Shown here: positions 2,866-34,910 of the stretch, piece after piece
Position numbering within the stretch: the stretch's first letter is position 1
Layout of the letters: the number at the start of each line of letters is the position of its first letter
UHGV virus genome: UHGV-0140617
Length of the DNA stretch: 34,960 bases
Reading direction: 5' to 3' (one strand)
DNA from: a virus
The notes under the pieces: model-generated
The model's database searches: none
What the model saw: only the letters and a program-made list of their open reading frames with translations
Told to the model about the DNA's origin: nothing
Made by a program: the position numbers and the translations under genes

Positions 2866-3575
2866 TACATCAAATCCTTATAACGCAGAATTTTGATGGT
2901 ACGGTCACGGTAATAACCACCGTAGGGAATACGCTGGCTTAGCTGGCCATACATGTGATGCAGTAGCATGTTGCCATCAAGCAAAATCCCGGCATGGTTC
3001 GGGACGGTGGACTGTACCTGCATGATAACCATGTCACCGGGCTGAGCTGGACCGTCGTACTCACGGAAACCGCATTCCTGCCAGTTGTCCATATAGAGGT
3101 TTTCACCCTGCTCCCACCAGTGCCGATCTACGCTGTAGTTGGGCAGTTCAATGCCGTGTTCGATGCGGAAATAGTCCATAATGAGAGACCAGCAGTCTGC
3201 ATGCCCGAGTACAAACTGGCGCCCTGTGAGGGGACGGTCTCCGCGAGGCATGACGGTGCGAATGTCGCCCTCAGGCCACGATGCAATAATCCAGGGCAGT
3301 TCCGTGGCATCACACATCAGCATGTCGAGTTCACTCGGCTGGGTTGTTGCCCCGTCGCCGGGGTGACTGTGGACGATCGCCACCACAGTTCCCTGCTCTT
3401 CGGCGGCCGCATAATCCTCAGGATTGAGTTCAAATTGCTCAGTCGGCGACTCAGCATTATTTTTGCAGGGGATGTATTTCTCCACCCGCCCCTTCTGAAT
3501 AACCACGCCACAGCACTCCTCGGGGAAGGATGCGGCGGCATGCGCCAGAATGGCGCTAACTGTTTTGTCGCGCAT
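2865..3575 (-). CDS. K: Tail assembly protein K (JAB/MPN plus NlpC/P60-like)
   Basis: 236 aa; HSHP metal-binding motif (AIVHSHPGD) and Cys/His peptidase-like C-terminal region typical of lambda gpK; gene order L-K-I. Confidence 0.8.
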   Translation of the reverse strand: MRDKTVSAILAHAAASFPEECCGVVIQKGRVEKYIPCKNNAESPTEQFELNPEDYAAAEEQGTVVAIVHSHPGDGATTQPSELDMLMCDATELPWIIASWPEGDIRTVMPRGDRPLTGRQFVLGHADCWSLIMDYFRIEHGIELPNYSVDRHWWEQGENLYMDNWQECGFREYDGPAQPGDMVIMQVQSTVPNHAGILLDGNMLLHHMYGQLSQRIPYGGYYRDRTIKILRYKDLM

Positions 3576-3577
3576 GA

Positions 3578-4336
3578 TTATCCTCTCAGAAGTGAAGCGC
3601 CGGGGAACCCGCCATAATCCAGCTGTTCATTCTCTCCGAAGCGAGGTTTACAGCCCGTTGACAGCAATCCGGAGCAAACATCCTGTGAAGGATCGTCCAC
3701 CCGATTGCCGTCTTTATCGAACCAGCCGTTTTGCCCGGCGTAGGTGCAGCCGTTCCCGGTTTTGTACCAGCCACGCATGCACCACGTGCACATTGGCTGA
3801 ATTTGCCGGGTCGGAATGAGTTGCCCGCGCAGATCGGCTGGACTGGAAAGCTCAAATTCTACAGTTTCATCGTCTGATCCTGATTTACGGTCGATGTAAT
3901 AAACCTGTTTGCGCTCCTCGTTGGGATTCGCAGTCTGGTTCCCATCAGGGAAGTTTCTGGCGTCCAGATAGTGTGCGAAGGTGTCATGGATGATCACCTT
4001 TGCTTTAGCCATCCCCTGAAATCTTCGGCACAGCGCGCCAATCGTGCCGCTGATGTTTGCAACGGTGAGAGACGGTCGTGAACACTGGCCGTCACTGCTG
4101 ACAGATATGCCGGTCAGTTCATACGGCCACGCGCCATACTCCTGCCCCTGCCACCACACCGACTTCGGCTCAAGTTTTGACTCGTCGCCGCCTGCGGCGA
4201 TGATTTCCGCCTCGGTATGCGGGATTGTCTCGTTGTGAAAGCGAAGAATACCTGCACCGAAAGCTGAGCCGTCCACCTCGATCAGGCGGACGCGCTTACC
4301 CGGCTCCAGTTTCTGGACATCAGATGAAATACTCAT
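3578..4336 (-). CDS. L: Minor tail protein L
   Basis: Start taken at internal ATG 4334-4336 (MSISSDVQKLEPGKRVRLIEVDG...), giving lambda gpL-like length; C-terminal Cys cluster (CTWCMRGW...C...C) as in lambda L; ATGA overlap with M stop. Confidence 0.8.
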   Translation of the reverse strand: MSISSDVQKLEPGKRVRLIEVDGSAFGAGILRFHNETIPHTEAEIIAAGGDESKLEPKSVWWQGQEYGAWPYELTGISVSSDGQCSRPSLTVANISGTIGALCRRFQGMAKAKVIIHDTFAHYLDARNFPDGNQTANPNEERKQVYYIDRKSGSDDETVEFELSSPADLRGQLIPTRQIQPMCTWCMRGWYKTGNGCTYAGQNGWFDKDGNRVDDPSQDVCSGLLSTGCKPRFGENEQLDYGGFPGASLLRG

Positions 4337-4671
4337 GGGTGGTATGCCTGTGTGAATGTGCTGCTGAGGGTGTATTTTTTGTTGCCGTGTGTAGATATCT
4401 GAAAGGATTCCGCGCGCCATAAGCCTGATGGCTCAAGCGGCGACTTCCAGATAAATGATTTCCACCCGGCATGTCTGTTGAGAAAGTTTTTAATGGCCTG
4501 AATGTAAGCCTCATCGCCGGTAAAACTCACGCTCCATTGAGATGTTACCGGGTTGATACCATCCCCTGCCACCTGCGTATAGCCATCGCCAAACTGTGCC
4601 TTTCGGGTACGAAAATTTGTATCAACCTGAGAGGCAACCTTTGGGCACCAGCTGAAGGTTTCTACTGTCAT
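4333..4671 (-). CDS. M: Minor tail protein M
   Basis: Start at ATG 4669-4671 (MTVETFSWCPKV...); FGDGYTQ and GWKSF motifs match lambda gpM (FGDGYSQ, GGWKSF); 2 nt after tape measure stop. Confidence 0.8.
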   Translation of the reverse strand: MTVETFSWCPKVASQVDTNFRTRKAQFGDGYTQVAGDGINPVTSQWSVSFTGDEAYIQAIKNFLNRHAGWKSFIWKSPLEPSGLWRAESFQISTHGNKKYTLSSTFTQAYHP

Positions 4672-4673
4672 GG

Positions 4674-7600
4674 TTAAACTCCCTTGATTAATCGCCACAG
4701 AGGCGAGCCCGGCATGCTGGCCTGTTCGTTAATGACGCCAGTGATGGCATCCTTAAGCTGCCTGCCTGCTGCTCCAGCAGTACCCTGACTGGCCGCCTGG
4801 GATGATCCGCCCTGAATATTGATATCGCCGAAGTTAACTGAAGGCATACCACCGGAGACCTGAGGAGTGCCAACAGCCCGAACGCCAAGCGAACCATCAG
4901 CGGCGCGCGTAAGCGGCATAATGGCTTCCGGACCAGCTTCGGCAAAAACCCCTGCACCTTTGGCAAAAGCAAACAGCTGAGGCGTCTGAAAAACGCCATT
5001 GCTGTAAGCGCTCAGGGACGGAGAGTCGTAAACATTACCCTTCGCATTAAAGGTAAAGTTCGCGCCAGCATTCTGAATAGCGGTACCGCTGCTGGCGGTA
5101 GCGGCTGACGAGGCACCAAAACTGAACAGTGAACCAATTGAGCTAACGCCATTAGCAACAGCCATATTCACCAGAACGTTCTGGATAATCTTCAGTACGC
5201 TGACGCCCCAGTCCTTCCAGCTATCAACGTTGCCATTGAGCATGTCGGTGATCGTGGTGACCGCGCCACCCATAGCCTGCTTCATGCCGTCAGCGGCCAT
5301 GGAAGAATAATCAGTAGCTTCGTCCACCCAGTTCGCATAACCCTCAGACAGTCCCGTCATCCAGTCGTCACGCTGCGCATCAGAAGCTGCGTAATATCCC
5401 TCCTGGTCGCGCAGGCGCTCATCGAGATAGCGCTTATTAAGTGCCAGTCCCTGCTGATAGAACGTCTCATCGATTTCACCAGCCTGACGCTGGCGGAGAA
5501 GATCGGTATTCTTCTGCTCGAACTCCTTACGCAGATTGAACTGCTCCTGAAGTCTTTCACGGAACCTGGTACCCTGCCCGTAACCCAGCAGTTGCCCTTC
5601 ATTAGCTGCTCGGGCGCTGGCGTTACTGTCGGCGAGGTTGGCTTCGTAATTTCGCAGTTGCTCACGTAATTTAACCTGGTCAATCAGCGCAGCATTCTGC
5701 AATAACGTCTTTTTCTGGGCTTCTGTCAGAGAAGCAAGCTCGCCCTGGCTGACCTGGTATTTAACCTTCGCCAGTTCAGTATTCTGGCCTTGCAGGGCAA
5801 TCTGCTCTTTTTGCTGTTTGATCAGCTTGTCATAGGCATCAGCTGTTTTTTCCGCCTCGGATTTCCCGCCCTTATGGCGGCTTGAGTCACGAATAGCTTG
5901 CAACTGCCTGGCTGACTCAACTTCCATGCTGACATACTTCTCACGCCAACCAGCAGGGAGATTAAGGTCAGATGCATCGAATTCCGCCTGCTTGCGGGTT
6001 TTGTCCAATCCCTTAAGACCGGACAACTCAAGCTGTCGCTGCGCCTTGTCTATAGCTTGCTGCTGCTTATTATCAAGTGCAGGAAGTACAGGCCCTGCAT
6101 ATTTTGGTGGGGACACTGCTGTAGACTGTCTGGAAACCTTGTTCAGACGGTCATACATCTCTGTAAGAGAACTTACGGCGCCAGCCATTTCTACTGTTTT
6201 ATTTATAGCCTGATCAGTTATGTCGTTTATTAACTGTTGTGTTTGCTTTCTTTTATTGAGCATTTGCTCAAGTCGGCCTTCTTCAACCGCAAGTTCTGAA
6301 GCAAACTCTGCTGATTTCTCAACCGCATCGTTATACAGCCATGTTCCATCTGAAGCAGAATTGGCTGCTAATTTTGCGTTATAAAGTTGATTGGATAATT
6401 CAGCAACTTTCTGCTTCTGCTGTTCAATCGCACTATTTTGAGCATCCAGTGAAATATTCGCCTGTCCAAGGTTGGCGGATATCTGCGTCTGAGACATTGA
6501 TTTCAGATTATCTCGTACCTGCTCGATTGTGTCCGCATATTGGATTGCAGATTCCCTGGCTTGTTCTTGGCGTTGATACATCGTGTACCACGCCCCAGCA
6601 CCCAACATTAAAATTCCTGGCAAACCACCAACTAACGACAAAAGCCCCGTAGCGCCAGACTTGAATAAATTCATTACCGATGTTGATCGGTTGAGTGCTT
6701 CTTGCGACGCTGATACTGCTTTATTTGACTGAACGAGAGTGGAATTGGCGGCTATCATTTCACGCCGTTTGGCAATAGAATTTTGTGTAGCTGTCGCTTC
6801 TGCATTTGTGTTTTTTGCAAGTTCCAACTCGGATAGCGAGAGCTGATAAGCACGCTCGGCAGCAATCGCATCTGCTGCCGCCTTTCGTTGTGATTGGGTA
6901 GCAGATTCAGCCCTTGCAGATGCGAGCGCAATTTCGTTCTTTCTGGCATCTATTAATTGCGCCGTTTGGTTCCCAAGATCGCCAAACATCCCTCCAAGAT
7001 AGCGAGCTCCACCTATTGCAGCCAAAGCTCCGGCAGCCGTAGCCACAGTGTCGATATTGTCAGAAACTGTATTCAATACAGCAACAAGAGCACTTGTCGC
7101 ACCAGTAGCTTCATTAGCTCCACCTACCCATGCCATGAAAGCATTTTCGACTTTCGTCGTGGCAGCAGAAACGGTCTGCGGCATTGCCTCAAATTCACCA
7201 CGCATAGTGCCAAGTTGACTTATCAGGGCCGGGACAACTTTATCTGCGGTTAGCATCCCCTGATCGGCCATTGCCTTCAGATCTTTACGAGCTACACCCA
7301 TCCCAGCGGCCAGCGCACGGATAACTCGATCACCGTTTTCGTTAACAGAGTTGAATTCCTCGCCCCGCAGAACGCCCTGAGCTAATGCCTGACTAAACTG
7401 GGTGATAACAGAACTTGCCTCTGCCGTGCTGGCGCCGGATAGCTTTAGTCCAGTAGAAATGGCCTCGGTTACATCCAGAACTTGCTGCGAACTGTATCCG
7501 TATTCACGCATTGATGCGGCGGAACGCGCAAAAAGACTCGCATTATCAGAGAAGGCGGTTCCGGTTCGTTGGCTAATATCCATCAGCGCCCGCTGAGACT

Positions 7601-16775: not shown

Positions 16776-17126
16776 TCATTTAAAGCGCTCGCGACCTGTT
16801 TTCGAGCGGTGGCAGGGCCAGCACAGGCTTTCAAGGTTCGAATCATCATCGGTACCCCCATGTGCCTTAGCCTTGATATGGTCAACGGTTGTGGCCGCGA
16901 CAGCACGTCCAGTACGCAGGCAGTTCTGACACAGATGATTATCACGCTTCAGGATGCGCGCGCGCTTGATATCCCACTTGCCGCCATAGCCACGCTCATG
17001 GCGACTCTTACCCTGCTGATGCTGCTTCCAGCCCTCATTGCGATGCTGCTCACAGTAGCCTGAACGGTCCGTAGTCGTACCGGGACAACCTCTCTTGCGA
17101 CATGCGCGAGGGATTAACGCTGGCAT
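16776..17126 (-). CDS. HNH endonuclease
   Basis: 116 aa with Cys pairs and HxxxH...N...H pattern (CQNCLRTG...VDHIKAKAHGGTDDDSNLESLCWPCH); classic position upstream of terminase in HK97-like cos phages. Confidence 0.85.
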   Translation of the reverse strand: MPALIPRACRKRGCPGTTTDRSGYCEQHRNEGWKQHQQGKSRHERGYGGKWDIKRARILKRDNHLCQNCLRTGRAVAATTVDHIKAKAHGGTDDDSNLESLCWPCHRSKTGRERFK

Positions 17127-19499: not shown

Positions 19500-19546
19500 T
19501 AAGCCCCCTCTTAATTGCTGTGAGTCCTCTCAGAAATGAGGGGAAT

Positions 19547-19571
19547 AAAAAAACCCGTTCGAATGAACGGG
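19547..19571 (-). terminator. Strong intrinsic terminator immediately upstream of the holin (minus strand)
   Basis: cccgtt(19554-19559)/aacggg(19566-19571) 6-bp stem followed on the minus strand by UUUUUUU (plus A7 19547-19553). Confidence 0.7.
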
Positions 19572-20290
19572 CCAGAAAAGGAGAATTTTGCATTACTGAA
19601 GCGTTAACGCGATGCCGGGTGCCTCCCGGTGGGCCTTTGGCTGACAAACCATGACCCGTGAGCACTTTGCATGTCACTCCCTGACATTGTTTACTGTCAG
19701 TTTCACCCCTCCGCTTAGGGGGATTCATCACAACAACTTCAAACGAGAGCTTTTACTGAATGCTCTTTAACATTAGGACCGATAAAGAAAACCTGCAAAC
19801 AAATAGCCCAATGATTTCAAAAGAGTCAGGCTTCACGGGCTGGATTTATCAACAAAGCACGCAGTGAGTGATACCCGTGAGCCTGAAATGAAAAAGGCCA
19901 CGCAAAAGCGCGGCCCTAAGAAGATATATATATTTTGTTAATTCAGCGGAACATCTGGCATGGAGCGATCCAGTGAAGCGTTAATCAACGCCTTAATCGC
20001 GTTACACACCTGATAAAATCCGCCAGGCTGAGATAATAGCCATTATACGATGACCACAGATATGTTGCTCCTGGTAAGATCAGTATATATGCTTGAGTCA
20101 ACATAGTATGTGGAACATAAGTTGCTGTAACTGGACGATACATCGCGCAGATGAGATTAATCACGAATCAAATTTGACATTTGAATCATGACGGTTAAAT
20201 CCGCCTCCCGGGCGTGGCCTGCGGATGTGCGAAGTACTGTACAGAGAGATCGCGCGCCCCAGGTGCAACTAATTAATCATGGGAGAGTTT

Positions 20291-20386
20291 ATGAAAAATC
20301 AACATAGCCTTCATGACTGGAGCACTGGTCTTAAAGCCTCGACATCAACATTTATGTTTATCATGATTTTGGTTTATGTTGTGTGA
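20291..20386 (+). CDS. Candidate small ORF (31 aa, hydrophobic C-terminus)
   Basis: ATG 20291 preceded by GGGAGAG; MKNQHSLHDWSTGLKASTSTFMFIMILVYVV; below the ORF-track size cut-off. Confidence 0.25.
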   Translation: MKNQHSLHDWSTGLKASTSTFMFIMILVYVV

Positions 20387-20636
20387 TGTTGATGACACCA
20401 TCAATGCCCAGCAAGCGCGGTTACTCATAAGAGATTTCACACCACTAACCCCGCTGGGTGTCAGACTGAGATTTTGAGTCTGGTTCGCTACCGGGGGTTA
20501 GGATCTCGTTTCATCAACCCAGAAGACTGATGCTATATCTGATTGAACCAGTTGGTGTTAGATGGCACTTGTTGGACTTGGACCGACACCCAAAATAATC
20601 AATCTGGTTCGTGCCCTGTAAGATAAGAGACTAATA

Positions 20637-20825
20637 TTACTTTCTCAGCACTCCTTCATTCGGGCTGCTTGAAGTATAAGGTGTATAGTTATCAGGTGTA
20701 ATCATTGAAGATTTACAAAAAATACACTTTGCACCAAAGGGATTTTTCTCAGTCACATCAAAATGAGATGTTCTGTACTGTGACCCATGACAACAAGGGC
20801 ACTTAAAATAAATATGAGCAGTCAT
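20637..20825 (-). CDS. Small zinc-ribbon-like protein
   Basis: 62 aa with CPCC-H ... C-IF-C cysteine pairs; in the Q-to-lysis accessory region. Confidence 0.5.
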   Translation of the reverse strand: MTAHIYFKCPCCHGSQYRTSHFDVTEKNPFGAKCIFCKSSMITPDNYTPYTSSSPNEGVLRK

Positions 20826-21247
20826 GATATTAGCCTTTATATGCTACAACATTCACTACCGCAGTGATAACCAGAAGATATATTTTAACTAATAGTTCTT
20901 TTGGTTTTAGCATCAGATTGCAATTCACTTTAAAAGCAATAAAAATGAACATTTCTTATCTGCTTACATAGGGAATCTAAAATAATATAATTTCTTTATA
21001 TTATAACATCAGCGATTTTTGGGATGTTGTTAACTTTTACGAATGCACTTAAGCGTGCAAAAAAACTACAGAGGTAAACAGACAAATGACATTTATAAAA
21101 TAATCATTTCAACTGTTCTATCTAGTGATTAGACTCAGACATCTGTTCAGATCGGTTTGAGCAGATGTCGAGTTTCTGAAAAACCAATATATCTACTCAG
21201 GCTTTCACCGTCTTCGCTATCGTATATTGGCCTCAATCAGAAAAGTA

Positions 21248-21460
21248 TCAGGCAGCTACAACGTTTTCGGCTGACGGCCCTTTTGCACCAGCAGTGATGC
21301 TGAACTCAACTTTTTGGCCTTCATTCAGCGTTTTAAAACCACCACTCTGAATGGCAGAGAAGTGTACAAACACATCTTTACTACCGTTATCAGGGGTAAT
21401 AAAACCAAAACCTTTAGATTCATTAAACCATTTTACTAAACCAGTCATTTTATTAGACAC
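21248..21460 (-). CDS. Cold-shock protein, CspA family (prophage-borne paralog)
   Basis: 70 aa [38 protein letters not shown]... with RNP1/RNP2 motifs; ORF-track start is GTG (21458-21460), alternative ATG at 21446-21448. Confidence 0.9.
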
Positions 21461-21996
21461 AGGTATTTCCTTAAATTCTATGTAGCCTTACGGCGAAAAG
21501 GTTTTCGCACACAATCTAATTAGTAACGATAAGAAGGCTCAAAAGAAAGGATTATCTGTGGATAACGCTTGAGATGAGAACTGCTTTACTAAACCGCTTT
21601 AATGGGTCTGTGTACCTAACCAACCACTCATTAATCACACAACCCACAAACAATAGCAAGTTATTTTTTCATTAAATTGTTCGGAACATCTTAGAAATGG
21701 ATGCCGTGACAGCATAATCAGTGATTTTTCCCCTCGATAACATATGAGTGATCGCCTCTGTACGAGCAGAAACAGAATACATCAGTTTTATCAATCACCT
21801 ATAAAGAACATTCAACCACTCTGAAAAAATCCAGTAATGAGTTTTTTGTTCTATGCTTTCGTAGTCCATGGAATTGGTGGTAACAAAGGTAACCATTTCA
21901 TCCAACTCAAAAACAATATTTACAAAACTATGCTACTTTTATTTCATATATGTGTATTATTAGGTAAAGGAAATTAGAACTTTCAAAGGAGAAAAA

Positions 21997-27398: not shown

Positions 27399-27683
27399 TT
27401 ATTCCGCAGATATGCAAACGAAGTCAGAACAGGCCGGGTTGGCGCTCTCCGTTCCTTCCCGGCCTTTTCTTTGCCTTGCGTTCTGCTGTTGTCGTCTGCC
27501 CAATAGCCCACTGTCGCGCACGGAAAAGACAATCAGCGAACATGCTTCCCTTCCGGCTGGACTGAGAGCATCGCCGGTAATAATCAACACCATGCTCTGC
27601 CCCCCCCTGGCGACTTCTGCCGGAAAACCTTCGCCAGCCAGCGCCTCGGTGATGTGCTTTTTGATGAATTCTTCCGGTGACAT
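27399..27683 (-). CDS. Hypothetical protein in cII position (reading frame uncertain because of G8 tract)
   Basis: ATG 27681-27683 lies 1 nt after the cro stop (coupled); contains a G8 homopolymer (plus C8 at 27600-27607); downstream sequence is low complexity. Confidence 0.35.
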   Translation of the reverse strand: MSPEEFIKKHITEALAGEGFPAEVARGGQSMVLIITGDALSPAGREACSLIVFSVRDSGLLGRRQQQNARQRKGREGTESANPACSDFVCISAE

Positions 27684-27684
27684 G

Positions 27685-27900
27685 TCAAGCCTTTACTGAT
27701 GGGTGAGGGAAAATTTCTTCGATAAACACCTTCCGGTCTGACGTACTCAAAGCGGATGCGATGAGATGGCATGTCTCAATATCTGGAACTCTCCGACCAG
27801 ATTCGTAGTGACAAATGGAGCTTTGTGTATGGCCTATGCTCTTCGCCAGCTCGCATTGAGTTAACCCACTGGCAATACGCATATTTTTAAGATTACTCAT
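27685..27900 (-). CDS. cro: Cro-like HTH regulator
   Basis: 71 aa XRE-type helix-turn-helix (ASGLTQCELAKSIGHTQSSICHYESGRR); divergent from the repressor gene across an operator region. Confidence 0.75.
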   Translation of the reverse strand: MSNLKNMRIASGLTQCELAKSIGHTQSSICHYESGRRVPDIETCHLIASALSTSDRKVFIEEIFPHPSVKA

Positions 27901-28010: not shown

Positions 28011-28670
28011 ATGAAAACAGAATGGTATGAACTGGCTAAAGCCAGAATGTCTGAAGTGGGGGTTACGCAGGCCCAACTTTCAGAGGAATTGGGTGTTACA
28101 CAAGGTGCTTTGAGCCACTGGCTTAACGGCAGGAGATCGGCTTCGCTTGCTGAAATAGGTTCGATTTTTCGAATCCTTGGCATTGTTGGTGCAACCCTCA
28201 ACATAGATGGTTCATTCACCATCGGACCAGAGCAATTCTCGGCACCTCCTAAACCTCATTATGAATATCCTGTTTTCTCTCACGTTCAGGCAGGTATGTT
28301 TTCTCCAGAGTTCAGAACCTTTACAGAACGCGATGCAGAAGGCTGGGTCAGTACAACCAAAAAAGCCAGTGAACATGCATTCTGGCTTGAGGTTGATGGA
28401 CACTCCATGACAGCCCCAACCGGCTCAAGACCAAGCTTCCCAGCCGGAATGCTCATTCTTGTTGACCCTGAAGAACCAGTTGATCCTGGAGATTTCTGTA
28501 TCGCCAGACTTGGCGGGGATGAATTCACTTTTAAGAAATTGATTAAAGATAGTGGACAGGTCTTTCTTCAGCCGTTAAACCCACAGTTTCCAATGATACC
28601 CTGCAACGAGCATTGCAGAGTCGTTGGCAAGGTGGTCGCATCACAATGGCCTGAAGAGACATTCGGATAA
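28011..28670 (+). CDS. cI: CI-like repressor (HTH plus S24 LexA-like peptidase domain)
   Basis: 219 aa; N-terminal HTH ([23 protein letters not shown]), Ala-Gly cleavage site (VQAGMF), catalytic Ser (VDGHSMT) and Lys (FKKL); no SD upstream, consistent with a leaderless transcript. Confidence 0.85.
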
Positions 28671-28692
28671 AACATTCTGTAAAATACTCACT

Positions 28693-28716
28693 CCCGGCTT
28701 ATGCCGGGATTTTTTT
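28693..28716 (+). terminator. Intrinsic terminator after cI
   Basis: cccggc(28693-28698) ttat gccggg(28703-28708) followed by T-run (atttttttgt). Confidence 0.8.
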
Positions 28717-28798
28717 GTCTGAATATCAATACCACTAATTAAATACACTTTGAAATCAAACGCTTTCAATTAATAATCAAATTTTATTTCATTTTGTA

Positions 28799-28827
28799 TA
28801 GACATAGTCAATTACGTTTTGTAATAT
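28799..28827 (+). promoter_or_regulatory. Putative early-left promoter with overlapping operator
   Basis: TAGACA (28799-28804)-N17-TAATAT (28822-28827); palindrome ATTAC-N5-GTAAT at 28811-28825 containing TGTAATAT, the same 8-mer as in the cI-cro operator region. Confidence 0.45.
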
Positions 28828-28858: not shown

Positions 28859-29152
28859 ATGAACATAACCTCCCAACCAAACCCAGCAAGCCAGGAATTT
28901 GATATTCACGCCAAGCTTAGATCAGCTAATTCGCACTGGCCTTATTGCTATGCTGTCCAGCATTTCGAGAAAGAATTTAATTACCAATTTAATACAAGTT
29001 TTGTTGACGAAATGGAGTTCGCTGTTTACGAACGTATCGATAATTATTTCGTTTTGGTTGATTTCTTTAAGTCATACGATGAAGCATGTGATGATGCTAA
29101 AAAAATCATTGATGACCACCCTGATCTTAAAAAAATGTTCCCTGCTATTTAA
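28859..29152 (+). CDS. Hypothetical acidic protein (first gene of early-left operon)
   Basis: 97 aa; SD ACGGAG 9 nt upstream; no recognisable motif. Confidence 0.5.
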   Translation: MNITSQPNPASQEFDIHAKLRSANSHWPYCYAVQHFEKEFNYQFNTSFVDEMEFAVYERIDNYFVLVDFFKSYDEACDDAKKIIDDHPDLKKMFPAI

Positions 29153-29223
29153 TTAAACCATTAATTAACAAAAAACATCATAAATAACACCTTAACCGGT
29201 GGGGAACAACTCACCCTGAGGAA

Positions 29224-29520
29224 ATGCAGATGAATATTACCGTCAAAAGTGAAGTCTTAAATAACAAGAGCCATTCAGTTAATCAGGATGACGACATTCT
29301 TTATATAAACAAGGCACACAAAACAGCAGAGTGCGCCAATAAATACGCGCATGAGCTACGTACAGAGTTTTTCCAGTTACTGATGCCAGCAATCACGCGT
29401 ACAGATGTGAAGGTAGCAGGAAGATTCACCTCGTTACTTAATGAGCTTTGCTTCATGACCCAAATGACCATGGAGAATTCATCCAAGGGGGGGGGCAATA
29501 ATGACGTTTCTGAAAGATAA
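29224..29520 (+). CDS. Hypothetical protein, apparently truncated at a G9 tract
   Basis: 98 aa as sequenced; with 8 G instead of 9 (29487-29495) the frame continues to TAA 29612-29614, overlapping the next ATG (TAATG). Confidence 0.45.
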   Translation: MQMNITVKSEVLNNKSHSVNQDDDILYINKAHKTAECANKYAHELRTEFFQLLMPAITRTDVKVAGRFTSLLNELCFMTQMTMENSSKGGGNNDVSER

Positions 29521-29613
29521 AGCAGCACACAATACTGCAAAACTTTTTGCCTCTTATGGAAATAGTTATCTGCATATTGCAAACCTTTTTCTGCGCAAGG
29601 CTTACGGGCGGTA

Positions 29614-29976
29614 ATGACAATGAAAAACAATACCATTGAAATTTATCGCCGCCGCGTTGCTATTGCGACATTAAACCGAATGAAGCGCAAGACAGGAGGT
29701 TATTGCCTCTCCGTAAATATGCCCGATAACAATATCCAGGTTATCGAGATTAACGAAGAATCAATGATGAAACTTTTGCTGCGCTTCGAAAAACAGGCTC
29801 GGACTGAATTCAACACAGAAGCGGAAACATTTCTTCGCCAGACGTATATGAAAAGCGTCGATATCAATGAACACACCGAATATCTGACCGAAACCGGAAA
29901 GATGATTGTTGACGAGATTTTTGCGGAATTAATTAAACACGCGAAAGAGAAATACGTATGTGGAGGAATTAACTGA
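29614..29976 (+). CDS. Hypothetical protein
   Basis: 120 aa; stop overlaps next ATG (TGATG). Confidence 0.5.
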   Translation: MTMKNNTIEIYRRRVAIATLNRMKRKTGGYCLSVNMPDNNIQVIEINEESMMKLLLRFEKQARTEFNTEAETFLRQTYMKSVDINEHTEYLTETGKMIVDEIFAELIKHAKEKYVCGGIN

Positions 29977-30205
29977 TGGCCTCACAACAAACAATTATTC
30001 ACGGAATGCAGACCCCCCCCCAGTCCTCAACGTGGATCTGCATGTGCTTCCGGATTTCACCGGACGCGTGGTTCTTTACATCGAAAAAGGGCGTGTGACA
30101 TGCGACCGCCGTCTGCTCGACGACGAACATATTTGCGCACTGGACACTTTTATCGAAATGGCTCGCGAAATGGAGCTACGTCTTGAGGAAATATCGAATG
30201 ACTGA
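29976..30205 (+). pseudogene. Hypothetical gene interrupted by frameshift at C9 tract
   Basis: ATG 29976 with SD GGAGG reads MASQQTIIHGMQTPP then shifts frame at C9 (30013-30021); the downstream frame (...VLNVDLHV...EEISND) ends ATGACTGA-coupled to the next gene; 10 C would restore one ORF of about 76 aa. Confidence 0.5.
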
Positions 30206-30620
30206 CAACCGTACCGTAAGCGCGATTGACCTCGCGTTACAGAAACACGATACGCCAGTTGGCCCTTTGTTCGTGGCAGTACGACACGGGCGCACAAAAA
30301 AATGTTTCACCCTCAACACTGCAATCCGTTATCTGGCGTTCTTCATGACTACCGAAGCTTTCAGTCGTTCCGGCTTCGAGCAGCGCTACCCGGATGTGCA
30401 GACCGTCTACCCTCTCAATCCAGAACTGAATTGTTGGCAACGAGGAGGCACAACAGTTGAGTACATCGGAGCCCACCAGCGCTGTATTCGACGTCTTCGC
30501 CGCATTCTGGCCATTAAGCGTGACATGCAGAAGTGGTGTGAGAAGTGGGACGCCATGCATGACCGCTTCGTTAAAGAGGTTGACGCACTACAGGCCAGTA
30601 AACCGGAGGGTATTCGATGA
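30198..30620 (+). CDS. Hypothetical protein
   Basis: 140 aa from ATG 30198 (MTDNRTV...); the track ORF starts earlier at TTG. Confidence 0.5.
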   Translation: MTDNRTVSAIDLALQKHDTPVGPLFVAVRHGRTKKCFTLNTAIRYLAFFMTTEAFSRSGFEQRYPDVQTVYPLNPELNCWQRGGTTVEYIGAHQRCIRRLRRILAIKRDMQKWCEKWDAMHDRFVKEVDALQASKPEGIR

Positions 30621-31195
30621 GCAGCAATAACGAAGCGCCAGAAACTACGCCAAACGGCATCAAAATCGGAAATCGCGTTATTGGCTGGTCTGGTGCGGTT
30701 AAACAATTCGATGGTCCACGCTTTGACTCCCGCAACTCAGAGGGTCTGCGTTGGTTGGCCTGCATTATGGATGCAGTTGCAGCTGGTTGGATTTCTTTAG
30801 GCACAGAGAAAGAACTCATTCTATGGCGCTGGCTGGTAGCAACGGTATTCATCAATGAAGAGAAGGATAAGAACGGCGCTATCGAAATCCCGAACGAAGA
30901 CGGCGGCGTTGATATCGCGGTCATTTACTCGGGTAAGAAAGGCGACCTGAGCATCTACCCCGGCCCGCTGCGCTTTTCTCTAGCTAACCATGTTGAAGGT
31001 ATCGCGATCGAGAAATACGGCGCTGAGGAAGGTCCAGCGCTGGCGCTGCGCATGTACAAGGACATGGTGATTGCAGATCCCGGGTATGGATTCAGGATGT
31101 CCCCTTTTGGGCGCGAGGGGCTTGAGATACTTCACGATGACTGCATCGGAATGATCAACACCAACGGCATGCCAGAAGCGCATGTGATTCACTAA
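30617..31195 (+). CDS. Hypothetical protein
   Basis: 192 aa, no recognised motif; ATGA-coupled to the upstream gene. Confidence 0.5.
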   Translation: MSSNNEAPETTPNGIKIGNRVIGWSGAVKQFDGPRFDSRNSEGLRWLACIMDAVAAGWISLGTEKELILWRWLVATVFINEEKDKNGAIEIPNEDGGVDIAVIYSGKKGDLSIYPGPLRFSLANHVEGIAIEKYGAEEGPALALRMYKDMVIADPGYGFRMSPFGREGLEILHDDCIGMINTNGMPEAHVIH

Positions 31196-31205
31196 GGAGA
31201 AAGCC

Positions 31206-31784
31206 ATGTTTATTTATACCGATCTGCTCCGAGCCGCTATGTGCTGCACTGCCAGTCAGGAAGACACCCGGAAAATCCTGAGAGGTGTACGCCTCACGCC
31301 AACTCATATTCAGGCAACGAATGGTATTGCTGCAGTTTCAATGAAGCATGATGCCAAAACAGAAATGGAAGGCGTATTTATCCTGCACGGTGATATTCCG
31401 ACTAACGCAGAAGGAACCGTATTCCAGCAAATTGGTAGCCAGTGGATTGCTGCTCATATGGACGACTACGAGCGCCCGGTTGGGCATAACGAGCTTGAAC
31501 TGGTTGAAGGCAAGTTTCCAGATCTTAGCAAGCTGCTGCCGACAGAGGAAGAGCCGTGTGCTGAGTTCCCTCCTTTCGCTGCTGAATTGCTTGCTTTGCC
31601 TTATCGCATGTTTGGTAATGAATTTGCGTCAATGCCCGTTAATTTCAAACTCTTTGGCCCTGAAAAACCATGTCAGGTACTGTTTAACGTTGCTGTTAAC
31701 AGCTTCTACGGCGATCCGGTGCTGGTAATCATGCCGATGAAATCGACGGTGTTCGAACTGCACCGTAAGGCGATGGAAGAATGA
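31206..31784 (+). CDS. Hypothetical protein with possible beta-clamp (DnaN)-like domain
   Basis: 192 aa; C-terminal PVLVIMPMK resembles the DnaN C-terminal VVMPMR motif and ILRGVRL...IQATNG resembles a clamp-domain segment; similarity recalled from memory, not computed. Confidence 0.45.
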   Translation: MFIYTDLLRAAMCCTASQEDTRKILRGVRLTPTHIQATNGIAAVSMKHDAKTEMEGVFILHGDIPTNAEGTVFQQIGSQWIAAHMDDYERPVGHNELELVEGKFPDLSKLLPTEEEPCAEFPPFAAELLALPYRMFGNEFASMPVNFKLFGPEKPCQVLFNVAVNSFYGDPVLVIMPMKSTVFELHRKAMEE

Positions 31785-31903
31785 AAAAGATGTATGTGCG
31801 CTCCCTGTGGGCGATGTTCTTCTCAATTCTGTTTGGTATTGGCGCTGCAGCCGGTGCGATAGGTTTTATCGGTGCAATGAAAATGTTGGCAGGAGTTCTG
31901 TGA
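31781..31903 (+). CDS. Small glycine-zipper membrane peptide (40 aa)
   Basis: MKKMYVRSLWAMFFSILFGIGAAAGAIGFIGAMKMLAGVL; ATGA overlap with the upstream stop and TGATG overlap with the downstream start; below track cut-off. Confidence 0.4.
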   Translation: MKKMYVRSLWAMFFSILFGIGAAAGAIGFIGAMKMLAGVL

Positions 31904-32127
31904 TGAAAATTGACTTCAACGACTACGGGGCGGTTGCATCGGTAACGATCACCAGCACTATTTTCGAGTTTCGCAAACATAACCGGGTGGTTGACACCAC
32001 TCTGTTTCTGGTGCCGGGAGTGGTCAGCGAACGGCGCGGAGCATTCTTCATGAAGACATTTATTTCAGGGAAAACCCGCGATGCACTGCGGGCTTATAAA
32101 ACCGTACAGCGTGAGGTGAAACGATGA
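31903..32127 (+). CDS. Hypothetical protein
   Basis: 74 aa from ATG 31903 with SD AGGAG. Confidence 0.45.
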   Translation: MKIDFNDYGAVASVTITSTIFEFRKHNRVVDTTLFLVPGVVSERRGAFFMKTFISGKTRDALRAYKTVQREVKR

Positions 32128-32336
32128 GCAAAGGCCAGCAACCAGCCTATCCATGCCCGCGCATCGATACTCCCCGTGGCATGACTTACCGCCAGCACCT
32201 CGTTGTGCAGATAGCGCCGGTAATGCTCACGAATTTTTTTAGCAATGATGCCTGGCAGGATTACGACGACCTAGCCAGAACTCTGGTGATGGCTGTAGAT
32301 GCCATCATCGAAGCTGAGCGGGAGACGGCGAAATGA
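32124..32336 (+). CDS. Hypothetical protein
   Basis: 70 aa, ATGA-coupled on both sides. Confidence 0.45.
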   Translation: MSKGQQPAYPCPRIDTPRGMTYRQHLVVQIAPVMLTNFFSNDAWQDYDDLARTLVMAVDAIIEAERETAK

Positions 32337-32794
32337 GCAAAATCACTAACCCTGTCGTGCTTATCTATAAGCGCGAAAACAGTGATACCTACGCTGTCGC
32401 GATCACCAATGGCAGCCAGGACTATCACGACGCCGTTCTGATGGCGACGATGGAACCGGATATGGCCGGTGATGATGTAGATACCTGGAGCAAAACCGGT
32501 TACTACATGGCGGCGGAGATTCAGCGCTTACGCCAGCAGTTGATCGCCCCTTTAAGTATTGGGGAGTTAATTCAGCGTCTTGAATCGCAGACTAGCGACC
32601 ACTGGGAGAGAGTGGTTTGCGATGTCACTTCTGGTAAACCGTTGACCATCACCCTGCCAGATATCACGTCAAAGGCGTTCTGGAGCGGTACCGGGAAAAG
32701 CGAGGTATTCCATCCGGAAAGCTATAAGCGCTGGGTAAAAGAAGCTATAGAACGAGCCTGTGTTATCGCAGGGATCGGTGTGGAGGTGAAGTGA
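32333..32794 (+). CDS. Hypothetical protein
   Basis: 153 aa, coupled within the operon. Confidence 0.5.
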   Translation: MSKITNPVVLIYKRENSDTYAVAITNGSQDYHDAVLMATMEPDMAGDDVDTWSKTGYYMAAEIQRLRQQLIAPLSIGELIQRLESQTSDHWERVVCDVTSGKPLTITLPDITSKAFWSGTGKSEVFHPESYKRWVKEAIERACVIAGIGVEVK

Positions 32795-33156
32795 TGCAAA
32801 AATCATTTATCAATACAGATAATCTGAACTCTGTAAATGACTGCCTCCAGCAACTGGTAATCGCTGAAGAAACACAACTGAGCATTGAAGACCAGTTGTC
32901 CAACTCAAACAGTAGTAGTGAATGGAGTGCGTGGCGCAAAAAGGCAGAGAATGCCTTACGGGTTGTAAAAGCGAAGCGTCGCATCATCACAGCCCGTCTT
33001 GCTGTTCTCCGCCAGATTGAAAAAGAAAACAACATGCAACTCCACCAGCGACACAACGATTACCTGGTTGCTGAGTTGAAAAAGATTGTTACGCCGTCGT
33101 CGTTTGAGCGTTGCGTTCGTCGGGTTGATGAAAAATTGGAGGGATCAATTGAATAA
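32791..33156 (+). CDS. Hypothetical protein (Ser-rich linker, basic helical C-terminus)
   Basis: 121 aa, coupled to the upstream gene. Confidence 0.45.
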   Translation: MMQKSFINTDNLNSVNDCLQQLVIAEETQLSIEDQLSNSNSSSEWSAWRKKAENALRVVKAKRRIITARLAVLRQIEKENNMQLHQRHNDYLVAELKKIVTPSSFERCVRRVDEKLEGSIE

Positions 33157-33295
33157 GGCATTTGAAATCTGGGTGCGTCAGCGGTACGGAAACCGCTACG
33201 ACCTCTCGAGGGATCAGGAAGGATTCTACTGCCGGGAAGTGATTAAACGAATGTTCGAAACGTGGTGCCACTGCCGTGGCCTGAACGTGGTGTGA
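33128..33295 (+). CDS. Hypothetical small protein
   Basis: 55 aa from ATG 33128 (MKNWRDQLNKAFEIW...), overlapping the upstream gene end. Confidence 0.3.
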   Translation: MKNWRDQLNKAFEIWVRQRYGNRYDLSRDQEGFYCREVIKRMFETWCHCRGLNVV

Positions 33296-33304
33296 GGCGG
33301 GTAT

Positions 33305-33541
33305 ATGAGCAATGTTATTCAGTTAGCTCCTAACGATTGGGTTTGTGAAAGTGTTCTGATCGCGGTGACCGGGCTCAAGCCCGGTACCATCCTCCGGGCC
33401 AGAAAAGAGTGCTGGATGGTTGGGAGGGAGTATATCCACGTATCACCTGACGGGAATCCAAAACCTTCCAGTGAGTGCATGTATAACAGAAAGGCTGTAG
33501 ATGCCTGGGTCGCTTCAATGAAAAGCAAGCAGCCAGGATGA
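33305..33541 (+). CDS. xis: Putative excisionase
   Basis: 78 aa small basic protein immediately upstream of the integrase. Confidence 0.55.
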   Translation: MSNVIQLAPNDWVCESVLIAVTGLKPGTILRARKECWMVGREYIHVSPDGNPKPSSECMYNRKAVDAWVASMKSKQPG

Positions 33542-33596: not shown

Positions 33597-34910
33597 ATGG
33601 ATAAAATCACATATCCAACAGGCGTCGAAAACCACGGTGGCAGTCTGCGCATCTGGTTTAATTTTAAAGGTAAGCGCGTCAGGGAAAACCTCGGTGTCCC
33701 TGACACCGCTAAGAACAGGAAGATCGCCGGGGAACTGCGGGTGTCGGTATGCTTTGCCATCCGCACGGGAAGCTTTGATTATGCTGAACGGTTTCCAGAT
33801 TCACCTAACCTTAAAATTTTTGGGTTGGGCAAGAAAGAAATCACAGTGAAAGAACTCGAAGAGAAGTGGCTGGATCTGAAAAAGATGGAAATCAGCGCGA
33901 ACGCGCACAAACGGTACGAGTCGGTCGTGGCAGTTGTTGTACCGCTGATCGGGGCTACCCGACTAGTGACAGCGATTGAGAAAGAAGAGTTGCTGTACAT
34001 CAGGAAAGAGCTTTTGATGGGTTATCAGTGCGCGGCAAAGGGCAGGATCCCTGTTAAGGGCCGGAGCGCGGTCACCGTCAATTACTACATGACGACTATC
34101 GCCGGAATGTTCCAGTTCGCCGCCGATAATGGGTACATAAAGGCAAATCCCTTTGATGGAATAAAGCCATTAAAAAGGGCCAGGGTGGAGCCAGATCCGC
34201 TCAGCCGTGATGAATTCATCCGTCTGATAGATGCGTGCCGGCATCAGCAGACGAAAAACATGTGGTCACTGGCGGTGTACACAGGTGTTCGTCACGGAGA
34301 ACTGGTTTCCCTGGCATGGGAAGATATAGACCTTGAAGCGGGTATAATAACAATTCGCCGTAATTATACAAAACTGGGCGAGTTCACACTACCGAAAACG
34401 GACGCCAGTACGGATAGAGTGATACACCTCATTCAGCCAGCCATCGATGCGTTAAGGAATCAGATGGAAATGACCAGACTCGGGCAGCAGTATCACATCA
34501 ACGTGCAATTGCGTGAATATGGTCGAACAACGCAGCACAGCTGTACATTTGTCTTTAACCCTAAGATAGTCCGTCGAAGTAAGGATGTGGGGGTTATCTA
34601 CAAGGTTGATTCGTTTGGTGACTCGTGGGACGCAGGGTTAAAAAAGGCGGGGATCAGGCATCGAAAAGCTTACCAGTCGCGCCACACTTACGCGTGCTGG
34701 TCACTGGCCGCTGGCGCCAATCCAAGCTTTATAGCCAGTCAGATGGGGCACGCTAGTGCGCAAATGGTTTTCAATGTGTACGGCGCATGGATGGCTGACA
34801 GCAGCGCAGAGCAGATCGCAATGCTGAATCAGAAGCTGGCAGATTTTGCCCCATTGATGCCCCATAGCCACGATAACAGTACGGGAGGATTATTAAAATC
34901 AGTAAGTTAA
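33597..34910 (+). CDS. int: Tyrosine integrase (phage integrase family)
   Basis: 437 aa; C-terminal catalytic region with R...HxxR...Y pattern (AYQSRHTYACWSLAAG...GHASAQMVFNVYGAW); terminal gene of the prophage arm. Confidence 0.9.
   Translation: MDKITYPTGVENHGGSLRIWFNFKGKRVRENLGVPDTAKNRKIAGELRVSVCFAIRTGSFDYAERFPDSPNLKIFGLGKKEITVKELEEKWLDLKKMEISANAHKRYESVVAVVVPLIGATRLVTAIEKEELLYIRKELLMGYQCAAKGRIPVKGRSAVTVNYYMTTIAGMFQFAADNGYIKANPFDGIKPLKRARVEPDPLSRDEFIRLIDACRHQQTKNMWSLAVYTGVRHGELVSLAWEDIDLEAGIITIRRNYTKLGEFTLPKTDASTDRVIHLIQPAIDALRNQMEMTRLGQQYHINVQLREYGRTTQHSCTFVFNPKIVRRSKDVGVIYKVDSFGDSWDAGLKKAGIRHRKAYQSRHTYACWSLAAGANPSFIASQMGHASAQMVFNVYGAWMADSSAEQIAMLNQKLADFAPLMPHSHDNSTGGLLKSVS

Follow-up and report, generated by a model that had tools for sequence, protein, structure and literature searches.

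The UHGV virus genome UHGV-0140617, whose analysed stretch of 34,960 nucleotides (nt) is called the window throughout, is a lambdoid prophage by its gene content, with the repressor and the left block on the plus strand and the cro, replication and lysis genes on the minus strand. The present analysis concerns the block at 28859-33295, in which a run of small plus-strand open reading frames (ORFs) fills the space between the repressor gene and the xis-int pair, a position that a preliminary description had given it from the letters alone and that the ORF layout bears out. The repressor (28011-28670, plus strand) is of the helix-turn-helix S24 kind (CI/LexA-like), and the distal end of the operon is formed by xis, encoding a DUF1233 excisionase (33305-33541, plus strand), and int, encoding a tyrosine integrase (33597-34910, plus strand). 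The block is probably the repressor-controlled early-left accessory operon of a Fels-1-type lambdoid prophage, read from a leftward promoter (PL). Two of its genes can be assigned: ORF d is, by its sequence, an orthologue of the characterised trans-acting antirepressor FsoA, and ORF g is, by sequence and predicted fold, a homologue of the beta sliding clamp DnaN.

Layout and control of the early-left operon

The block holds 14 ORFs, named a, b, b2, c, d, e, f, g, h1, h2, i, j, k and l; the earlier account of a block of small ORFs stands, and its count of about 12 does not. Coupling is as tight as had been stated, with start and stop codons overlapping by 1, 4 or 8 nt at nine junctions (c/d, d/e, e/f, g/h1, h1/h2, h2/i, i/j, j/k and k/l). 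PHROG families are matched by 11 of the 14 (E values of 1e-12 to 1e-77), all of them labelled as of unknown function except the family of g, and pairwise ratios of nonsynonymous to synonymous substitution (dN/dS) against relatives are 0.1-0.3 overall for a, b, b2, c, e, f, g, h1, h2, i, j and l. Given these matches and this range of dN/dS, the ORFs can be regarded as real, constrained genes. Pfam, NCBIfam and PADLOC gave no above-threshold match for any ORF of the block. The claim that no ORF could be assigned to a known family thus holds for these three resources but not for d and g; likewise, sensitive profiles brought up no Bet, Exo or N among ordinary early genes, and two genes could nonetheless be assigned.

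Consensus scans placed three signals on the plus strand ahead of the first gene. These are a strong intrinsic terminator with a GC-rich stem of 7 base pairs followed by T7 (28692-28716), which lies upstream of PL and would end the repressor transcript, a PL-like sigma-70 promoter of the form TAGACA-17-TAATAT (28799-28827) and a second candidate sigma-70-like promoter (28750-28777) beside the 10-mer TTTGAAATCA. The operator half-site TGTAATAT overlaps the -10 element of the PL-like promoter and has three copies in the right operator region (OR) between cro and cI (27926, 27958 and 27994); the 10-mer TTTGAAATCA is likewise common to the PL region and OR. Because both the half-site and the 10-mer recur in OR, control of PL by the repressor is plausible, and so is a left operon that is repressor-controlled from this predicted promoter. 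Over the scanned region, 10 terminator-like sites were found against 7.6 expected from shuffles, which is chance level; by this consensus scan those inside the operon are weak and lie in h1/h2, and terminators that a lambda-type N module would need to override were not seen there.

The preliminary description had noted that an N antiterminator is missing, and our searches agree. No ORF has an N-terminal arginine-rich motif, arginine-rich stretches being internal (in e) or in a tiny ORF (l), and the first gene, a, is acidic. Neither Pfam nor PHROG gives an antiterminator match in the block, and Rfam gives no match within it. Sites resembling boxA occur at chance level (14 found, 14.1 expected), and the two in the block (29020 and 29143, within a) each carry a mismatch, boxB not having been searched separately. 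The reported lack of a recombination module was confirmed by Pfam, PHROG and NCBIfam profiles, which give no Bet, RecT, Erf, Sak or exonuclease match in the block; the only ORFs long enough for recombination proteins are f and g, and both are something else.

A layout without N and recombinase is not unusual, being common to Fels-1 and dozens of enterobacterial prophages; Gifsy-2, in contrast, has RecE/RecT at the equivalent position. The closest protein homologues of the window come from Citrobacter (about 90-95% identity). Its best relatives at the DNA level are an Escherichia coli prophage (L001, NZ_LR536431; 92% over 80% of the block) and a Citrobacter youngae prophage (L006), with Salmonella phage Fels-1 (L002) more distant. 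Fels-1 has the same layout (repressor, about 14 small hypothetical genes, xis and int), as do E. coli, Citrobacter and Klebsiella prophages and IMG/VR contigs. The architecture is a common, already sequenced type of lambdoid left arm and not a new one, and across related prophages its genes are present or absent and shuffled as cassettes.

The Fels-1 left operon resembles that of the window in its cleavable CI-like repressor, its small coupled genes, its xis-int end and its lack of an annotated N or recombinase. It has homologues of b2, c, d (FsoA), e, g, h2, j, l, xis and int in the same order as the window, with amino-acid identities of 28% for the g fragment and 55-80% for the rest, whereas a, b, f, h1, i and k are absent or diverged. 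The PL operon of lambda (N, ral, sieB, cIII, kil, gam, bet, exo, ea genes, xis, int) agrees with it in where it lies, in its orientation, in its repressor control and in leading into xis-int, and its "ea" genes are cassette-like, as are the xis-proximal small genes of the window. Lambda differs by N/nutL, Red and cIII/kil, none of which is detectable in the window by profile and boxA searches.

An FsoA orthologue and two variable homopolymer runs

ORF d (29976-30205, plus strand; phrog_340) begins with an ATG that overlaps the stop codon of c and encodes about 76 amino acids once its frame is restored. The small antirepressor gene fsoA was mapped to the Fels-1 left operon by Lemire, Figueroa-Bossi and Bossi in 2011 (PMC3121763). 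Its expression is under FsoR, a cleavable CI-like repressor that must be cut before the antirepressor is made, and DNA damage induces it; the product inactivates GtgR, the repressor of Gifsy-2; the GtgR-type repressor on which FsoA acts is non-cleavable and belongs to a co-resident Gifsy prophage (PMC3121763). The published primers map in the Fels-1 sequence, the 3' part of le154 (ATGAACTCACAGCAAATGATGA) at 3359-3380 and the homology arm of le162 at 3553-3592, and fsoA is thereby the ORF of 78 amino acids STM0898.2n.Fels1 (L002 3359-3595). The frame-restored product of d is identical to FsoA at 60 of 76 residues (79%).

A more distant likeness links d to the Gifsy-2 antirepressor GftA (STM1020.1n; 39% over 36 residues, E value of 4e-6). 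It needed a direct pairwise BLASTP comparison, since searching phage records by tblastn with d and e had not turned up the Gifsy phages. Common to d and GftA, which is one of the GftA/GfoA/GfhA/FsoA antirepressors of Salmonella prophages, is the core G-x-V-T...DD...DT-x-x-E-x-x-REM. Like fsoA, d lies in a left operon, in its case one with predicted repressor control, whereas the genes of GftA, GfoA and GfhA are LexA-controlled and adjoin dinI in the right arm of Gifsy phages. It lies 1.2 kb downstream of the PL-like promoter with its operator half-sites, and the consensus scan placed no terminator between them. PHROGs (phrog_340), GenBank and RefSeq all label the gene hypothetical; in the PHROG, PGAP and GenBank annotation of this gene set, a function known from experiment is overlooked.

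An intact frame of about 75 amino acids, as in the antirepressor family, is not present in the window. The frame of d is broken (-1) at the C9 run, which is one base short, and the frame of its ATG ends at 30098 after 40 codons. From an alternative GTG at 29960, which shares the frame of the conserved body, a variant of 81 amino acids with a different N-terminus could be made. The core of the d protein hardly varies between any of the loci, those with d out of frame included, and the high dN/dS of d was traced to two alternative C-terminal tails. Dual coding was considered for the low dS and open alternative frame of d and was rejected, the alternative frames not being consistently open in diverged loci.

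The block had been described as carrying two frame-breaking homopolymers. Both runs exist, G9 at 29487-29495 and C9 at 30013-30021 (plus strand), and they are the only G/C runs of at least 9 in the window; only C9 clearly breaks a gene, G9 lying at the junction of b and b2. Under a first-order Markov model, 0.15 runs of this length would be expected per window, and for two of them inside 600 nt the expectation falls to about 7e-4. We compared the runs of the window with those of the E. coli and C. youngae relatives, 16 plus 6 IMG/VR loci and 7 metagenome loci (n = 27 for the C run, n = 23 for the G run).

The C run spans codons 13-16 of d and keeps the frame in 14 of the 27 loci, as T+C9 in 11, as an interrupted run in one and as C8 with a 7-nt tandem duplication in two. 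The frame is lost in the other 13 (C10 in seven, C8 in three, C7 in one, C7A in one and the form of the window in one). C9 and C10 alleles stand on flanks identical over 1,000 nt. In two loci (L025 and L027), the C8 (-1) allele is rescued by a tandem duplication of 7 nt (CCTCAAC CCTCAAC) located 3 nt downstream, which changes PVLN to QSSTLN, and interrupted runs are found in L022 for the G run and in L024 and L029 for the C run. Since compensated and interrupted alleles cannot be read errors, indels have really arisen at these sites and slippage has taken place at the C run, although the particular lengths in the window may be either biological or sequencing errors. The pattern of the C-run alleles fits a reversible switch better than pseudogene decay. 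Fels-1 fsoA, unlike the lineage of d with its hypervariable run, encodes the same peptide without a run (ATCCCACTACCA).

The G run lies close to the 3' end of b (29224-29520, plus strand), which has 98 amino acids in the window allele and a dN/dS of 0.12-0.25. ORF b2 (29501-29614, plus strand), a basic product of 37 amino acids with a dN/dS of 0.02-0.29, has its own ATG 5 nt past the run. Counted as A plus G, this run totals 10-16 nt in relatives and sets three frame states: fusion of b and b2 in 8 of the 23 loci, a b stop overlapping the b2 start (TAATG) in 10, and the overlapping state of the window in 5. The interrupted allele GGGTGGG occurs in the coupled state (TAATG). As all three states occur in relatives, the G run need not break a gene. 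In L026, a second slippage site is present about 30 nt upstream of the G run, where a run of A5 (ATGACAAAAATGACG) is A6 and breaks the frame of b. The window has a further C8 run (27600-27607) in the early-right operon, in a gap of about 150 nt between cro and the Ant/BRO-like gene.

Both runs recall the contingency loci of Haemophilus, Neisseria, Campylobacter and Bordetella, in which long G/C runs in or at the edge of coding sequence vary in length among otherwise identical alleles and set the frame. They differ in their setting, an enterobacterial prophage early operon. Literature searches brought up no relevant account of prophage genes with such phase variation, and to our knowledge phase-variable prophage cross-talk has not been described in Enterobacteriaceae.

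A half-length homologue of the beta sliding clamp

ORF g (31206-31784, plus strand) encodes 192 amino acids, about half the length of a beta clamp. Its family shares with E. coli DnaN (366 amino acids, three domains, ring dimer) the fold and the motifs of the peptide cleft, R-x-x-L-x-G-V, ATNG(H), (V)DG(K/R)FPD and IMPM(K/R) mirroring RYYLNG, ATDGH, (L)VDGRFPD and VMPMR of E. coli beta. An exhaustive HMMER search gathered 423 clusters of the family at 50% identity, nearly all of 170-210 amino acids. Built from 60 diverse members, the family profile matches E. coli beta with an E value of 3e-11 and an hhalign probability of 97.2%; its positions 9-161 align to beta 138-295 and its positions 111-181 to beta 305-365, and no other beta residues are covered. 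Breadth of the profile mattered, as the narrow profile A1 gave no match against the PDB and the broader A3 was required. The protein itself has no Pfam match, and 9 of the 60 family members match PF02767 weakly (E values of 1.5e-4 to 0.01).

The AlphaFold model of g has a predicted local distance difference test score (pLDDT) of 81 and a predicted template modelling score (pTM) of 0.79. Searched with Foldseek against the PDB, its top 37 matches are all DnaN (best E value of 2e-4, probability 0.98-1.0, query-normalised template modelling (TM) score 0.43-0.61). The model comprises domain II minus its second helix, together with the FPD linker and a single further beta-alpha-beta-beta-beta module that ends in the C-terminal MPM(R/K); domain I and the first half of domain III are absent, and the last half of domain III is kept. 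Three complete clamp domains (about 366 amino acids) are thus not present, and from the model g is unlikely to form the canonical dimeric ring.

In beta, a hydrophobic cleft between domains II and III binds motifs of the QL[SD]LF type. The most conserved positions of the g family align to beta R152, L155, G157, A171, T172, G174, P242, N320, Y323, M362 and P363. In beta, R152, G174, H175 and the C-terminal backbone contact the peptide (PMC3716654). PHROGs assigns g to phrog_3007, labelled "RusA-like Holliday junction resolvase", and also gives a weak match to a processivity-factor family; we rejected the RusA label, as g has a clamp fold and no RusA Pfam match. The remaining conserved positions of the family presumably correspond to beta residues that line subsites 1 and 2 of the peptide cleft.

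Members of the g family occur in early or accessory clusters of diverse phages with no constant partner; g, h1 and h2 travel together within the phage group of the window. An obligate pairing of f and g was rejected, since distant g homologues adjoin other genes (for example a Lar-like one) and many loci have no f. Two Pantoea phage proteins annotated as "DNA polymerase III beta subunit", from vB_PagM_LIET2 (195 amino acids) and vB_PagM_PSKM (188 amino acids), resemble g in length class and predicted fold (TM score 0.71-0.74, E value of about 1e-7). They differ from it in sequence (14-16% identity) and come from other phage types, and belong to the same broad phage family of about 180-200 amino acids. 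Proteins of this kind have thus already been noticed through that annotation, and a literature search for a described short DnaN-like phage protein found no functional study.

In left operons that are otherwise closely related (the window and L015, L020-L022, L024, L026, L027 and L029), the g slot holds two deeply diverged alleles that are about 33% identical; the second is even closer to DnaN (DVRYYLNGV, LVDGRFPD). In Fels-1 (L002 3935-4569), the g counterpart is split in two ORFs, with only the C-terminal two thirds represented, by a frame of 117 amino acids that overlaps STM0896 and STM0896.2n. It may be a frameshifted gene in LT2 or a mis-annotation.

Accessory genes and readings of the operon

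The remaining ORFs, all on the plus strand, are listed here in their order. ORF a (28859-29152; 97 amino acids, 36% GC), the first gene after PL, has a product with an isoelectric point (pI) of 4.7, a net charge of -8 and 2% arginine; it matches phrog_33365 weakly and has homologues of 33-87% identity in Erwinia, Yersinia and other prophages, with a dN/dS of 0.2-0.35. ORF c (29614-29976; 120 amino acids, phrog_1737) is 65% identical to Fels-1 STM0898.3n. The basic product of e (30198-30620; 140 amino acids, pI 9.7, phrog_1886) is 55% identical to STM0898.1n of Fels-1 and has a conserved RRLRRILAxKR motif. ORF f (30617-31195; 192 amino acids, phrog_1515) is found in a subset of relatives only and gives a confident AlphaFold2 model with no counterpart among solved folds.

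Next to g, ORF h1 (31781-31903; dN/dS 0.2-0.3) encodes a hydrophobic peptide of 40 amino acids with a grand average of hydropathy of +1.3; its start overlaps the g stop (ATGA), and it co-occurs with g in relatives. It is followed by h2 (31903-32127; 74 amino acids, basic, phrog_1001), which stands downstream of g/h1 in most relatives, and by i (32124-32336; 70 amino acids, phrog_2728). ORF j (32333-32794; 153 amino acids) matches phrog_492 with its N-terminus and is modular, with invariant N-terminal (about 65 amino acids) and C-terminal (about 50 amino acids) parts and a coiled-coil middle that ranges from about 35 to 90 amino acids among relatives. ORF k (32791-33156; 121 amino acids, phrog_6158) is helical/coiled-coil and rare in relatives. 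The arginine-rich l (33149-33295; phrog_3871) has 48 amino acids from a TTG preceded by GGAGG, or 55 from an ATG at 33128. Single-sequence searches of the PDB with g, f and j gave no match, and profile searches with e, k and f gave noise only.

Some relatives depart from this gene set. The E. coli prophage NZ_LR536431 has IS5 inside b, a frameshifted e and an extra ParE-like toxin cassette between d and e; the features of this locus have the coordinates 1873-2853, 3967-4555, 5716-5838 and 6559-6729. Its PGAP labels "sodium:solute symporter" (h1) and "ATPase (partial)" (end of j) were rejected as spurious. In the contig IMGVR_UViG_2703718685_000010, cro, cI and a are 100% identical to those of the window and are followed by other left-operon genes, with no f-k, which shows that immunity region and accessory cassettes have recombined with each other.

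On the other side of the repressor, the minus strand carries cro (27685-27900) and, beyond it, a BRO/Ant-like gene, DnaD/O-like, DnaC-like and DnaB-like replication genes, a Q-like antiterminator gene and lysis genes. Large ORFs farther upstream on the same strand are arranged like a head and tail module; of these, the one covered by a search encodes an HNH endonuclease (16776-17126). A minus-strand segment of 36-40% GC (19542-21624), flanked by the lysis genes and the Q-like gene, has two RNA matches, a full-length cspA thermoregulator RNA (21176-21624, 201 bits) and the small RNA STnc100 (19542-19759, 77 bits). The low-GC segment suggests a prophage-borne cold-shock-protein moron with a thermosensor in its 5' untranslated region.

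If the block is a repressor-controlled accessory operon, SOS cleavage of the S24 repressor would release transcription from PL, which would run on to int without an N-type antiterminator; such N-independent read-through is suggested because the operon has no convincing intrinsic terminator. The phage would use host recombination functions. Protein d, when in frame, would cross-induce heteroimmune prophages. Protein g would not encircle DNA; its cleft, with the equivalents of beta R152, L155, T172, G174, P242, M362 and P363, might bind a host replication or repair protein that carries a clamp-binding motif, and g would then act as a decoy or adaptor. Both runs would be prone to slippage, the C run switching the fsoA orthologue on and off and the G run changing only how b and b2 are joined. 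The remaining twelve genes are conserved phage accessory genes. A stronger version, which we regard as improbable, makes the C run a contingency switch (C9 on, C8 or C10 off) by which lysogens would stochastically toggle the antirepressor and the induction of co-resident heteroimmune prophages, with g alongside as a decoy for the clamp-binding-motif proteins of the host replisome.

Of the rival readings, sequencing error comes closest to the preferred one, and we still think it doubtful. It holds that the two frame breaks of the window are errors of homopolymer length in sequencing or assembly, with no biological meaning: G/C runs of 9 are error-prone on several platforms, the core of d stays near-invariant even where it is out of frame, and alleles that differ in run length only share flanks identical over 1 kb. 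Length nevertheless varies in 27 independent isolate or metagenome assemblies (C7-C10 for the C run, 10-16 nt for the A+G run), the two compensated C8 loci and the three loci with interrupted runs are not explicable as read errors, and Fels-1 encodes the same d peptide without the run. The same frame breaks could make the region a decaying, cryptic prophage remnant and its frame-broken ORFs pseudogenes, and the IS5 insertion in b and frameshifted e of the E. coli relative and the split g homologue of Fels-1 point the same way as the broken d. Decay is nonetheless very unlikely with a dN/dS of 0.1-0.3 across the operon, a d core conserved even with the run out of frame, and intact repressor, cro, xis, int, replication, Q, lysis and head genes in the window.

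The preliminary description had proposed a novel anti-defence, defence or host-takeover island, in which most ORFs would counter host immunity or keep out other phages, and as the main character of the block we judge this unlikely. The position is a known site for such genes in lambdoid phages, and relatives have a Lar-like restriction-alleviation gene adjoining a g homologue and, within this operon, cassettes for ParE-like toxins. ORF a, as the gene nearest PL, encodes an acidic product, and g could target host replication. But PADLOC finds no defence protein, Pfam and NCBIfam match no known anti-defence family, and the sole gene with an experimentally studied orthologue, d, corresponds to a protein that acts on prophage repressors and not on defence systems. 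For g itself, a genuine processivity clamp serving phage replication can be imagined, either as four copies of three beta-alpha-beta-beta-beta modules in a ring of 12 or by co-assembly with host beta, and its clamp fold, its DnaN motifs and the "DNA polymerase III beta subunit" annotation of phage homologues of similar length would agree. This has little probability in our estimate, as neither the second inner helix of domain II nor the first half of domain III is present in the model, the window has genes for DnaB- and DnaC-like proteins and none for a polymerase or clamp loader, and the g family sits among small accessory genes and not in replication modules.

Several points weigh against our own reading of a Fels-1-type accessory operon. 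With 12 of the 14 genes lacking a function, "accessory operon" describes more than it explains. Because d is frame-broken in the window, this phage may lack an FsoA-like activity. For g, the decoy role depends on a conservation of motifs that would be expected of any DnaN homologue, and no clamp-binding motif turned up when the early proteins of the phage itself were searched for one. N-like proteins are poorly conserved and e has an internal arginine-rich motif, so a non-canonical antiterminator may exist; the promoter and terminator calls are those of consensus scans only.

The link from phrog_340 and STM0898.2n to FsoA can now be carried over to many prophages of Citrobacter, Klebsiella, E. 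coli and Salmonella. The g family, with about 190 amino acids, a retained cleft and one PHROG label of "RusA-like resolvase", is a candidate to interfere with or borrow host replication and repair proteins. As the run length of the antirepressor gene differs in half of the natural alleles, a stochastic and reversible control of prophage cross-induction would be directly testable.

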